Assembly (NCBI GenBank): GCA_900552555.1
Contig: URZW01000007.1
Span: 1,580-65,579 of the forward strand
Direction: 5' to 3'
DNA from: an uncultured Clostridium sp.
GTDB taxonomy: Bacteria; Bacillota; Clostridia; TANB77; CAG-508
Length of the DNA: 64,000 nucleotides
The notes beneath the pieces are model-generated. The model ran no database searches and was not told where the DNA came from. It saw only the letters and a list, made by a program, of their open reading frames with translations. The position numbers were made by a program, and so were the translations under genes. Within the stretch, counting starts at the first letter, position 1; each line of letters begins with the position of its first letter. Below are positions 1 through 57,262 of this stretch, in pieces.

Positions 1-336
1 AACTCCTGTCCATAATACTTTCCAAATAGACCTCTACAAGTTTATTTTATCATTTAAATTCATTTTTTATTCGAGGATAAACACCCTAATTAAAAATATA
101 GTTTTATAAAATACCCACCATTCCTAAAACAAAAATGGCTTTGTTTCCTACTTTGTTATAACACCCTTACCAAATCAGTAGGCTATTTGGTTCGGATGAC
201 GCCGCAAACTAGGCAGCGTAAGCTAATTCTTCATTGTTAGCGTTTATTTTTAGTTTCTCGTTTATTTAAGTGGCCAACGAGAATCCACTACTTGCTATCT
301 ATTTTTCTGGTAATATGTCGAAACCTTTACATCCCC
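1..336 (-). ncRNA. ssrA: tmRNA (SsrA), 3' end cut by window edge
   Basis: The reverse complement from 336 reads GGGGATGTAAAGGTTTCGAC, the canonical tmRNA 5' end. The internal tag frame GCT AAC AAT GAA GAA TTA GCT TAC GCT GCC TAG (241..209) encodes ANNEELAYAA*. The reverse complement of 1..11 (GGACAGGAGTT) looks like the start of the T-arm. Confidence 0.9.
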
Positions 337-19687: not shown

Positions 19688-20080
19688 TTATTGTTTCTTC
19701 ATTTTTGGTTTAGAAATCAAAGAAGCCAAATATCCAAAAAATACAGCAGCAGCAATTCCACCAGCAGCAGCCTTAACACCACCAGTAAAAGCACCAACTA
19801 AACCAGTCTCATTAACACCTTCAATTGCACCTTTAGCTAGGTTGTAACCAAAACCAGTTAAAGGAACAGTAGCACCGGCACCAGCGAAATCAACTAAATA
19901 TTTATAAATTCCAAGACCACCTAAAATTGCACCGGTTGTTACAAAAATAACTAAGATTCTTGCAGGTGTAAGCTTTGTTTTATCTATCAAAATTTGACCA
20001 ATTACGCAAATAAGTCCACCAACAACAAAACATTTTAACAGTGGTAACCAATTAAAAACATTTATCCAATTTATATCCAT
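19688..20080 (-). CDS. spoVAEB: Stage V sporulation protein AE (SpoVAEB-type)
   Basis: Shows SpoVAC/SpoVAEB-type membrane protein similarity. The real start is ATG 20080 (MDINWINVF) with an AGGAGAG RBS. The track extension to 20143 reads through a REP unit. Confidence 0.8.
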   Translation of the reverse strand: MDINWINVFNWLPLLKCFVVGGLICVIGQILIDKTKLTPARILVIFVTTGAILGGLGIYKYLVDFAGAGATVPLTGFGYNLAKGAIEGVNETGLVGAFTGGVKAAAGGIAAAVFFGYLASLISKPKMKKQ

Positions 20081-20110
20081 ATAATTATACACTCTCCTAA
20101 CTATGTTTTT

Positions 20111-20247
20111 TTGTCCTTTTGGGGACGGTTCTTTTTGGGACATTATTACTAAAAAGAATATTCTGTGTAACCGCTCTGTTTCTAAGATTTTATATTATGC
20201 TTAATTTTAAAAAAATGTCCCAAAAAGAACCGTCCCCAAAAGGACAT
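20111..20247. repeat. REP family A inverted doublet (REPIN-like) inside the spoVA operon
   Basis: TGTCCTTTTGGGGACGGTTCTTTTTGGGACAT (20112..20143) has its exact reverse complement within 20215..20247. The spacer is 71 nt. Confidence 0.9.
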
Positions 20248-21342: not shown

Positions 21343-21807
21343 CTAAACAAGTGTCATACTTTGTGTATTAAAAATTAAATAAACGATACCGACAATTATA
21401 GAGGCAGAAATACCAAATACAAGGACAGGACCTGCAACAGTAAACATTTTTCCACCAACACCCATTACATATCCCTCTGATTTGTATTCCATTGCTGGTG
21501 AAACGATAGAGTTTGCAAAACCTGTTATGGGAATTAAAGAACCAGCACCAGCAAATTTTCCTATTTTATTAAAAATATTAAGTCCTGTTAAAAAAGCAGC
21601 AATTCCAATTAAAATTATAGATACAATAGTACCAGATAAATTTTGGTCAAAACCACGTTCTTTACAAATATTCATTATTATTTGCCCAATTGTACAAATT
21701 AATCCACCAACCCAAAATGCATTAAAACAATTCTTCCAAATAGGGGAATTAGGTGATTTTTTATTAACATAGTCTTGATATGTTTGTTTTGTTTCAATAG
21801 GATTCAT
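21343..21807 (-). CDS. spoVAC: Stage V sporulation protein AC
   Basis: A 154-aa membrane protein paralogous to the spoVAEB product. It is in the expected operon position. Confidence 0.85.
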   Translation of the reverse strand: MNPIETKQTYQDYVNKKSPNSPIWKNCFNAFWVGGLICTIGQIIMNICKERGFDQNLSGTIVSIILIGIAAFLTGLNIFNKIGKFAGAGSLIPITGFANSIVSPAMEYKSEGYVMGVGGKMFTVAGPVLVFGISASIIVGIVYLIFNTQSMTLV

Positions 21808-50960: not shown

Positions 50961-51191
50961 CTAATCAATAAATTCTACAGAAACTTTCTTATGTTCTCTA
51001 GCACCAACTGATTTTGCAACAGTTCTTATAGATTTTGCAAGTCTTCCTTGTTTACCAATTACTCTACCCATATCTTCATTTGCAACTTTTACTTCAAATA
51101 CTACAGATTTTTCATCTTGTTTTTCAGTTATTTCAACTGCATCTTTGTTATCAACAAGATTTAAAATTATAGTTTCAATAATTTCTTTCAT
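50961..51191 (-). CDS. KH-domain RNA-binding protein (YlqC-like)
   Basis: The VIGKQGRLAKSIRTV GXXG motif is present. It lies between rpsP and rimM. Confidence 0.88.
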   Translation of the reverse strand: MKEIIETIILNLVDNKDAVEITEKQDEKSVVFEVKVANEDMGRVIGKQGRLAKSIRTVAKSVGAREHKKVSVEFID

Positions 51192-51256: not shown

Positions 51257-51493
51257 TTATTTTGCTGCATTTTCGATTAATTTTTTAACAGTATCTGTTG
51301 GTTTTGCACCATTTTTAATCCATTGTGCAACTTTTTCTTGATCTAAAACTATTGTAGATGGTTCTGTCATTGGGTTGTATGTTCCTATTTTTTCGATTAT
51401 TTTACCATCTCTTGGAAATTTAGAATCAGCAACTACTATATGATAGAAAGGAGCTTTTTTCTTTCCTTCTCTTTGTAATCTGATTTTTACCAT
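51257..51493 (-). CDS. rpsP: 30S ribosomal protein S16
   Basis: Begins [24 protein letters not shown]. Confidence 0.95.
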
Positions 51494-54898: not shown

Positions 54899-55561
54899 TT
54901 ATACTATATTCAAAATCTCATTCATTGATTCTATCTTATAATCAGGTTCCATAAGAACTGTTTCTTTTTTCTTCCATTTGTTATCTATTTTTTGCTCATA
55001 CCAAACAGTTTTTACACCTAGTATCTTTACCCCTAACAAATCTTCTAATAATTCATCACTAACAAAAACAATATTATTATACTCTTCTTTTGGAATATCT
55101 TCAAAAGCCTTCATATACACTTTCAAATTATGTTTTCTTTCTTTAACCTCTTCAGAAATAACTATTTTATTAAAATATTTTTTTATTCCTTCACGTTCCA
55201 AAATATATTCTACATTTCTAATTGAATTGTTACTTATAATTCCCAAATAATATCCTTGTTCATATAATTTAATAATTGTATCTTTTGTTTCTTCATCTAA
55301 AATATGAGATTCCAATAATAACATATCAATTTTTTCTAAATCTTCTTCAGATATATTCAAAATTAATGATAAATCTTTATAAATTTCTTTTTCTGTAACT
55401 TTTCCTAGAGAATTTAAAATTTGATAATTTTTCCATTTTCTAAATATATCATCCCATTTTAAATTATATTTTACTAATATTGAATTGATTTCACTATCAA
55501 CATTTTTAAATTTATTAATCAAAGTATATCCCCAGTCAAAAAAAATATATTTATATTTCAT
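54899..55561 (-). CDS. HAD-superfamily hydrolase
   Basis: Motif I-like FFDWGYTL, then IISNN and VSDE, occur in the expected order. Confidence 0.7.
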   Translation of the reverse strand: MKYKYIFFDWGYTLINKFKNVDSEINSILVKYNLKWDDIFRKWKNYQILNSLGKVTEKEIYKDLSLILNISEEDLEKIDMLLLESHILDEETKDTIIKLYEQGYYLGIISNNSIRNVEYILEREGIKKYFNKIVISEEVKERKHNLKVYMKAFEDIPKEEYNNIVFVSDELLEDLLGVKILGVKTVWYEQKIDNKWKKKETVLMEPDYKIESMNEILNIV

Positions 55562-55793
55562 AATTATTATCCTCTCTTTTAACCAAATTATAATAAACCA
55601 TAACTATATATTAATCGTTTTTCAAAAAAAATAACAATAATAGTACTGTCTCAATTGACTTTATTATATCAAAAATATTGTTCCTAAACAATAAACTTTA
55701 TAAAATATTGTTTTATCGACCTCAGTAAGCCAATTAAAAACAGACTATAAAATGTATCTATATTACATCTTATAGTCCTTTTTATTAAATAAT

Positions 55794-56339
55794 CTATTTT
55801 TTACTAAATTTATTTAAAACAATACCAACTTTATGCACAATTTCAGTAGACTTTTTATTAGCAATATCCTTGCCAAAAGCCTTACCACTAACTGTAAAAG
55901 CTGACACTAAAGCACTCAAAACAAACTGAATATTAAAAGGCAAATTCATTTGAGTTGAAATCTTTATAGAAATCAATGCACTTATAGAACCACTTAATAC
56001 ACCACAAATATCACCAATAACGTCTGCACAAATATTTGCAACCTTTGGGGCATTTTTGATTAATTTAATTGAATCTTTTGAACCTTTTACTTTTTTGGTT
56101 GCTTTTGCATGAAATTCCTCTTCATTAGCAACTGTAACCGCTACACCTATAATATCAAAAAATATTCCTAAAAATACTACTAATACCAATATTAAAAGTG
56201 CAGGTATCAAGCTTAAATTTGATACTCCATTTGTTGATACATATGCAAATATCATTGATAAAATAAATGTCATTATAAATGATTGTATAACCCATTTCAT
56301 ATTCGAGTGTTCCTTTTTACTTTCTTGATTCTTTTTCAT
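55794..56339 (-). CDS. Small multi-pass membrane protein (candidate OapA-like partner of the upstream ncRNA)
   Basis: The 181-aa product has about 4 hydrophobic segments and an AGAGGGA RBS. It lies immediately downstream of, and co-oriented with, the large ncRNA candidate. Confidence 0.6.
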   Translation of the reverse strand: MKKNQESKKEHSNMKWVIQSFIMTFILSMIFAYVSTNGVSNLSLIPALLILVLVVFLGIFFDIIGVAVTVANEEEFHAKATKKVKGSKDSIKLIKNAPKVANICADVIGDICGVLSGSISALISIKISTQMNLPFNIQFVLSALVSAFTVSGKAFGKDIANKKSTEIVHKVGIVLNKFSKK

Positions 56340-56471
56340 TAATTATTTTTCCCTCTTTCTTGCTATTTATTAATTATTTTATGCTTATCATATATTCACA
56401 TACGGAAGACCCTATGCATCATTTTTTCTAAAATATTAATATATGATAAGTCCCAAATAAAAACTATAAAT

Positions 56472-57092
56472 ATAAAATTAAAACAAGCACTAAGGCTTGC
56501 CATTAATTTCTAAATTAAAATATAGATGGTAAAAATCTAAGTAAATTTTACGGTTTAGGTCTGGTTGAATTTCTCTACTTCCCGCTTAGCATTACTGCTA
56601 GAACCGTTTCCGTTTAAGGGAACCAGCTAAATTTATTTTAGCCACCAGATCGCCACTCAAATCCGTACCTTAATCCCCAGATTTTCAAGCTTTTGATAAA
56701 GCAAACATTCTAGAAGTTTTCCTTGACATACTTTTGCAAACTTACTAGTCTTTTTTGCAAGTATAATTTCATAATCCAGAATAAAAATTATTTGGCCGAA
56801 CAATTTTCATTCCCGTCAAATTAATCCCAATACACTCACTCGAGACAGGCTACACTATGTATTTTGTGTCTTGGCACTCAACATAGGTTTAACTTAAATT
56901 TTTCTATTTAAGCCTCCGCGAAACTAGGGAATCACATATATGCCATTATATATTACCCTAACCCCTTTACTCCCTGGTTACACACAAAACTGGCATTTCG
57001 CGCACAAACAAGAAACTTCAACGATGTGCCCTTTAGTGGATTTTTAGCCCCACCCTCGTAAGTTTAAGTACGACTAGAATAATGCACCATCA
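56472..57092 (-). ncRNA. Large structured ncRNA candidate (~620 nt; OLE-like by size and context)
   Basis: It lies within a 923-bp gap without ORFs, where GC is clearly above the local background. It has its own promoter and a 3' hairpin CAAGC-CTTAGT-GCTTG plus a T-tract. Many local helices and one long-range helix are visible (TCTGGTGG...CAACCAGA). Confidence 0.6.
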
Positions 57093-57098
57093 ATTAAT

Positions 57099-57127
57099 AT
57101 TATAACTTATTTCTAGAAATATTCCAA
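57099..57127 (-). promoter_or_regulatory. Promoter of the ncRNA
   Basis: The minus strand reads TTGGAA (57127..57122), a 17-nt spacer, then TATAAT (57104..57099). Confidence 0.6.
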
Positions 57128-57262
57128 TTTCTTTTAAATCTTTTCTTTAACTTTTAATGTATTTGTAGATTATATTTTTGTTATTTATGTTGTTTTTTCT
57201 TAAATTATCTCTATAAATCTCACTTTATCTTAATTTTACGCATATTAATAATTCATATATAA

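Follow-up and report, generated by a model that had tools for sequence, protein, structure and literature searches.

An ole-oapA locus of trimmed form in an uncultured, low-GC gut member of Clostridia

This locus raises the question of what a gut bacterium keeps in 923 bp of DNA that hold no open reading frame of at least 90 amino acids. The stretch lies at positions 56340–57262 of the window, by which we mean the whole 64,000 nucleotides that were analysed, and it is the longest of its kind there, the runner-up measuring 719 bp, as a preliminary description made from the letters alone had noticed. The same description had called the gap GC-enriched, and so it is, with 30.0% GC in the gap and 35.7% in the RNA core at 56510–57106 against 27.2% in the window, and with sliding-window peaks of 37–40%. 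It had also proposed a large noncoding RNA, possibly OLE/oapA-like, naming a cmscan search against Rfam as the decisive check. In an Rfam 15 scan of the whole window, the sole match in the gap was OLE RNA (RF01071) at 57106..56510 on the minus strand, which is the strand of all features of the locus described below, with a score of 351.3 bits, or seven times the gathering score of 50, an E-value of 1.4e-99, and coverage of the model from position 1 to position 616 of 616. A permissive Rfam rescan of 55700–57400 at E-values up to 1 returned no family besides OLE, which excludes ROOL, GOLLD, HEARO, raiA, and the riboswitch classes. Given this full-length match and a downstream protein that carries the testable features of OapA, the proposal stands: the 923-bp gap holds an OLE RNA gene, and the gene that comes next encodes OapA, the membrane partner of this RNA. 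The whole is best explained, with a probability of roughly 0.93, as an ole-oapA locus in the published variant 1 form, carried by an uncultured gut bacterium of low GC content from Clostridia, and nothing counted against the OLE identity. The element is already known, being a member of a curated Rfam family whose trimmed form is in print; our refinement concerns the host, which is no extremophile but an anaerobe of the gut that has not been cultured, and the RNA, which is trimmed and lacks the OapB docking site.

Relatives were collected with the 181-aa protein encoded downstream of the RNA as bait, and 80 loci were fetched from a collection of species-representative genomes. All of them belong to uncultured MAGs titled Clostridium sp., Clostridia bacterium, or Clostridiaceae bacterium, obtained from human, mouse, rabbit, goat, and chicken guts, and their OapA homologues are 70–99% identical. 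OLE hosts are expected among Bacillota that are anaerobic and/or extremophilic, and those found here are gut anaerobes, not extremophiles. With nhmmer, OLE was found directly upstream of the OapA homologue and on the same strand in 77 of the 80 loci, the remaining three having less than 200 nt of upstream flank. The window and 70 full-length OLE copies were then joined in one alignment of 71 sequences (A1), in which about half of the positions are invariant.

The structure of the Rfam model, when projected on the window sequence, keeps 145 of its 159 pairs, nine of them non-canonical, and the 14 missing pairs form a single block, the distal part of P7. Across the 71 sequences, this structure together with a terminal closing helix is paired in 90.8% of cells, and the figure falls to 34–48% when the partners are slid by 1–3 columns. 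Compensatory changes on both sides were found in 65 pairs, with 0 of 500 shuffles reaching the observed values, and because the structure is derived from the family model and not from these sequences, the covariation is independent support for it. In addition, the minimum-free-energy fold of the predicted transcript of about 621 nt has a z-score of -4.05. Strong purifying selection acts on this 597-nt OLE RNA, whose base pairs have changed in a compensatory manner; the preliminary description had named a lack of conservation or covariation in relatives as refuting its proposal, and both are strong.

The ends of the RNA are joined by the closing helix, whose 5' strand GATGGT (57086..57091) pairs with ACCATC (56530..56525). 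This helix lies outside the Rfam consensus structure, is present in the MFE fold, and is 100% paired in the 71 sequences, one of its pairs having changed from GC to AU in four of them. Next to the 5' end, the P4 hairpin (57035..57054) carries the A-rich loop GCUAAAAA, which is identical in 71/71 sequences and which, in the cryo-EM dimer of Clostridium acetobutylicum, is the site of the intermolecular A-A bridge B1 (PMC12286853). At the base of P5, where OLE has a K-turn as its OapC site, the J4a/5 segment AUCGUUGAAG (57025..57016) is near-invariant in the clade and keeps its C and GA positions, so that, judged by inspection only, a K-turn may be present. The P9 multi-stem arm (56748..56846) comprises helices 9–12, with 13 compensatory pairs in its distal stem, and ends in the L9.3 loop, whose palindrome GGCC (56797..56794) is present in 70/71 sequences and corresponds to B3, the bridge that kissing loops make in the OLE dimer seen by cryo-EM (PMC12286853). 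At the level of sequence, both dimer-bridge elements, L4 and L9.3, are therefore in place in this lineage and would be available for dimer formation. As a separate observation, one relative (L064:2333-2883) has an OLE from which the distal arm of P9 is entirely missing, and with it the GGCC kissing loop of L9.3; this could be either a real deletion or an assembly artefact.

In the 3' half, P12.2 (56560..56649) encloses P13, P14, and P14.1 (helices 17–20), and its strands TCTGGT and ACCAGA are paired in 99.8% of cells; this is the long-range pairing that had been seen from the letters alone. P14.1 is capped by a GUAA loop of the GNRA type, written GTAA in 69/71 sequences and GCAA in the other 2/71, and the P13 hairpin GCUAAA-AUAAA-UUUAGC (56626..56642) has a perfect 6-bp stem that covaries (helix 18). 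Among the local helices named in the preliminary description, three correspond to OLE stems, with CTTAAAT/ATTTAAG being the P7 stub, CTATGT/ACATAG the outer P8, and GGCTAAA/TTTAGCT the P13 stem. The fourth, TTGCAAA/TTTGCAA (56760-56754 / 56740-56734), has no place in the consensus: its first arm lies in the invariant P9 3' strand and junction, and it is probably a chance complement, given that the linker holding its second arm differs from relative to relative. Another candidate, a CTAGTC/GACTAG pairing of the 5' region with the base of P9, was dropped because it clashes with covarying P9 pairs.

A sigma-70-type promoter precedes the RNA at 57099..57127, with a -35 hexamer TTGGAA(T), a 17-nt spacer, and a -10 hexamer TATAAT (57104..57099), matching the consensus at 10 of 12 positions. 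Promoter-like sites are not above chance in such an AT-rich window (23 found, 20.6 expected from shuffles), and the promoter is credible only because of its conservation in relatives: TTGGAAT-17-TATAAT is kept in place in nearly all 70 of them, while the spacer and the upstream sequence diverge. The promoter first proposed at 57127..57099 on the minus strand was thus correctly placed. Transcription of ole is predicted to start at about 57092, and with the hexamers conserved in nearly all relatives, the first 14 nt or so of the Rfam match are promoter, overlapping the -10 box and probably untranscribed.

At the other end, an intrinsic terminator lies at 56472..56501, with the hairpin GGCAAGC-CTTAGT-GCTTGTT followed by TTTTAATTTTAT. 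It had been placed at about 56472..56499, and relatives carry a hairpin at this position with different stems, which differ by subclade (GGCAAGC/GCTTGTC, AAGGTAAGC/GCTTACCTT, AAGGCAGA/TCTGCCTT, and CGCCCT/AGGGCG). A scan of the window for terminator-like sites found three against 0.4 expected, and a strict scan of the window and 69 relatives found a hairpin with a T-rich tail at the same position in 38/70 sequences, 17–42 nt beyond the closing helix (one at 7 nt); in most sequences missed by the strict scan, RNAfold gives GC-rich hairpins. Independent termination is not universal, since about 12 relatives (L037, L038, L040, L043, L053, L069, L070, and others) have an OLE-oapA spacer of only 10–60 nt with no hairpin, and for the same reason ole and oapA must be co-transcribed in these loci. 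Some of the short spacers may stem from over-extended calls of the ORF start. In the window, the terminator is a modest one (a stem of 7 bp, three of them G-C pairs) and probably ends most ole transcripts, with some read-through feeding oapA. Judged by its sequence, ole is served by its own conserved promoter of the sigma-70 type and, in the lineage of the window, by a hairpin terminator, whereas in Halalkalibacterium halodurans it lies within a polycistronic transcript.

This arrangement bears on another reading, in which the region would chiefly serve to control oapA in cis as its 5' leader, like a riboswitch or an attenuator, and would not be a free-standing, trans-acting RNA. The RNA is indeed always upstream of and co-oriented with oapA, and the relatives with short, hairpin-free spacers as well as the modest terminator of the window would agree with a leader; however, a terminator-like hairpin stands between OLE and oapA in most of the 70 sequences, 600 nt with about 20 covarying helices are far beyond any known cis-regulator, the Rfam rescan returned no riboswitch family, and published work describes OLE as a processed RNA, present in abundance, to which the OapA protein binds. 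We regard control in cis as the main function of the region as very unlikely, and we keep to a free-standing OLE RNA.

The actual leader of oapA (56340..56471) contains a lineage-specific insert of about 90 nt and then the Shine-Dalgarno sequence AAGAGGG. The insert (56380-56470, minus strand) contains a perfect 12-bp inverted repeat, CTTATCATATAT / ATATATGATAAG, which forms a long hairpin (z = -2.5), and it is present in the window and in the relatives L003-L006 and L015, absent from L001, L007, L012, and L054, and single-copy in the window. Its interpretation as a conserved regulatory element or as a mobile repeat was rejected, given that close relatives lack it and that it occurs only once; it is a local indel.

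The form of the RNA can be compared with the three described by Fernando and Breaker in 2024 (PMC11332333), namely full-length OLE, variant 1, and variant 2. Like the full-length OLE of H. halodurans and C. acetobutylicum, the window RNA has all the major stems from P4 to P15, the invariant A-rich L4, the L9.3 GGCC palindrome, the P14.1 GNRA loop, and oapA directly downstream; in contrast to it, the window RNA lacks the distal P7 (14 pairs) as well as the GNRA loop and the bulge of P13, and its host is a gut anaerobe with 27% GC and not an extremophile. The P7 stub CTTAAAT-AGAAAA-ATTTAAG (56893..56912) has 5–7 bp, the 14 absent pairs corresponding to model positions 205–236. In the C. acetobutylicum dimer, L7 contributes to bridge B2. 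The P7 element measures 20 nt in the window, 16–23 nt in 55/71 sequences, and 40–73 nt in 16/71, so that P7 is a length hotspot of the clade (A1 columns 209–282), with expansions that differ between subclades, for example in L068:2212-2855, L077:2240-2886, and L025:2223-2860. The OapB protein depends on two features of P13, a GNRA tetraloop and a bulge of one nucleotide (PMC7936274). P13 of the window has the loop AUAAA, with neither the tetraloop nor the bulge, and so its primary OapB site is absent by sequence; across the 71 sequences, the loop of P13 ranges from 3 to 13 nt, is of the GNRA type in 2/71, and never comes with a bulge.

Variant 1 is found mostly in the TANB77 gut clade, has a shorter P7–P9 and scores of 310–390 bits, often lacks the OapB site at the tip of P13, and belongs to hosts largely without OapB and OapC (PMC11332333). 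Since the missing OapB site is a known trait of this published variant, it is no bar to OLE membership. The window RNA shares with variant 1 the full set of conserved OLE nucleotides, the strongly shortened P7, and the P13 without the OapB-binding loop and bulge, and the hosts of both are uncultured low-GC gut MAGs labelled 'Clostridium sp.'. Its 351 bits lie within the published band, although that band was set with a different alignment and covariance model. One difference is that P8 and P9 of the window align with the Rfam model from end to end and are no shorter, whereas published variant 1 has them shortened. Variant 2, from the RF39 clade (PMC11332333), is likewise a reduced OLE of uncultured gut bacteria with small genomes, but it lacks P7 and P8 entirely and scores 235–310 bits, while the window RNA keeps a complete P8 and the P7 stub. 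By P7, P13, host type, and score, the last on a band defined with another covariance model, the window OLE fits variant 1. As for the protein partners, no L7Ae or KOW protein of the OapB/OapC kind was found among the 25 scanned proteins of the window, and because P13 has lost its GNRA loop and bulge, the particle in this lineage most likely works without OapB bound at the primary site.

The same losses could be taken for decay, so that the RNA would be a non-functional OLE relic in a genome-reduced symbiont, with the truncated P7 and the missing OapB site as its marks. That P7 is a stub, that the P13 loop varies freely, and that such hosts are reported in the literature to be mostly without OapB and OapC would all fit with this. 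Relics show no covariation, however, and here 65 pairs have been maintained by compensatory changes. Roughly one position in two never varies, although the OapA proteins of the same species are only 70–99% identical; conservation also extends to the promoter and to both dimer-bridge loops, and the oapA gene is undamaged and encodes the invariant motif. We therefore think decay highly improbable, and read the trimmed RNA as a functional OLE of the variant 1 form. Finally, there is next to no chance that the gap represents another large ncRNA class (ROOL, GOLLD, raiA, HEARO, or other) or hidden small protein genes, as mechanical ORFs of 35–48 aa inside it might suggest, given that no other Rfam family appears at E-values up to 1 and that variation in relatives tracks base-pairing and not codon periodicity.

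The gene that follows the OLE RNA, oapA (55794..56339), encodes the co-oriented 181-aa protein that had been located at 56339 from the sequence, the ORF running from 56339 to 55794. It is a membrane protein with four hydrophobic segments, which an AlphaFold2 model built from 33 close homologues (pLDDT 66) renders as helices 8–39, 44–82, 88–130, and 135–180. Residues 106–110 (56024..56010) read DVIGD, a DxxxD motif that is invariant in alignments of 33 and of 20 homologues, and the DxxxD motif is distinctive for OapA (PMC11332333). Under the CNNM model, OapA is the cluster nearest to MpfA and yet distinct from it (PMC11332333), and the 181-aa protein matches the Pfam CNNM family (PF01595) below threshold, with 19.2 bits against a cutoff of 28.4 and an E-value of 1e-3; similar sub-threshold matches occur in 12 of 20 clade members, the best having an E-value of 1.2e-4. 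Its likeness to the CNNM Mg2+ transporters MpfA and CorB thus consists of weak matches (E-values of 1e-3 to 1e-4), while the protein itself differs from them in having four helices and the DxxxD motif and no CBS or CorC domains. A four-helix membrane protein of about 20 kDa, with DxxxD, sub-threshold CNNM similarity, and a position right after OLE, has what is expected of OapA, and by these features of its sequence we assign the 181-aa protein to OapA and not to the CNNM transporters. An NCBIfam search with it matched no OapA model and gave only a spurious, weak match to CoxD, sequence and profile searches of the PDB gave LolE noise (E-values of at least 0.04) and neither OapA nor CorB, and Foldseek against the PDB with the weak monomer model gave no match at an E-value below 0.9 and none to CorB/CNNM. 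At a pLDDT of 66, the predicted monomer is unusable for or against a CNNM-like fold.

The mechanism that we propose is drawn from work in H. halodurans and C. acetobutylicum (PMC12265935, PMC12286853, PMC11332333), both of which are distant and possess OapB and OapC. By analogy, the RNA of about 600 nt would be made as an abundant, stable transcript, and read-through past the modest terminator would supply the oapA mRNA. The RNA would fold into a 5' domain (P4–P9) and a 3' domain (P12–P15), closed by the terminal helix, and two copies may dimerise by means of the invariant A-rich L4 and the palindromic GGCC kissing loop of L9.3. The RNA dimer would then dock on dimers of the CNNM-like OapA to give a particle at the membrane, and this particle would help the cell adapt to stresses such as cold, too much Mg2+, short-chain alcohols, and carbon sources of poor quality. 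Recent work proposes a membrane-spanning OLE dimer to which OapA is bound. A further idea, for which we see about even odds, is that OLE of the gut lineage has been streamlined into a self-contained unit that has a conserved promoter and terminator to itself and needs no partner but OapA, doing without OapB and perhaps also without OapC, and in which P7 and the P13 loop are freely evolving modules. If this were true, the gut OLE would be a natural minimal OLE particle that shows what the RNA can dispense with. Both the reduced form and the probable loss of OapB and OapC are in print already, and what our analysis adds to them, modestly, is the conserved autonomous promoter-terminator unit and the length variation of P7.

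Among bacterial ncRNAs without an assigned biochemical function, OLE is one of the largest and best conserved. The locus adds no new class, and its value lies in the 71 aligned sequences, which show what survives in the trimmed gut form, namely L4, L9.3, the P12.2–P14.1 core, the closing helix, and the promoter, and what is lost, namely the distal P7 and the OapB site of P13. This list of survivors could guide minimal constructs for structural and functional work.

Around the locus, a P-loop kinase-like gene stands upstream, a dGTPase gene is divergent, and genes for a HAD hydrolase and an SDR oxidoreductase follow downstream, with an ffh-ylxM-rpsP-KH-rimM-trmD-rplS cluster further along. Only the order ole-oapA-SDR is widely syntenic among the related loci, the SDR gene being found downstream in 65 of the 80. 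The HAD-family hydrolase gene (54899-55561, minus strand) stands between oapA and the SDR gene and is in place in only two of the 80 loci (L005 and L054); it seems to have entered the ole-oapA-SDR order recently, by insertion.

Other parts of the window deserve a brief mention. Two genes for SpoVAC/SpoVAEB sporulation membrane proteins (19688-20143 and 21343-21807, minus strand) suggest that the host forms spores, and the presence of OLE has been reported to correlate with sporulation proteins. At positions 1-336 (minus strand), there is a tmRNA gene (RF00023; 126.9 bits, E-value of 3e-49), its 3' end cut by the window edge. The second-largest ORF-free gap holds two small ORFs of 76 and 78 aa (50961-51191 and 51257-51493, minus strand), which look like the KH-domain protein and the ribosomal protein S16 of the ffh-rpsP-rimM-trmD cluster.
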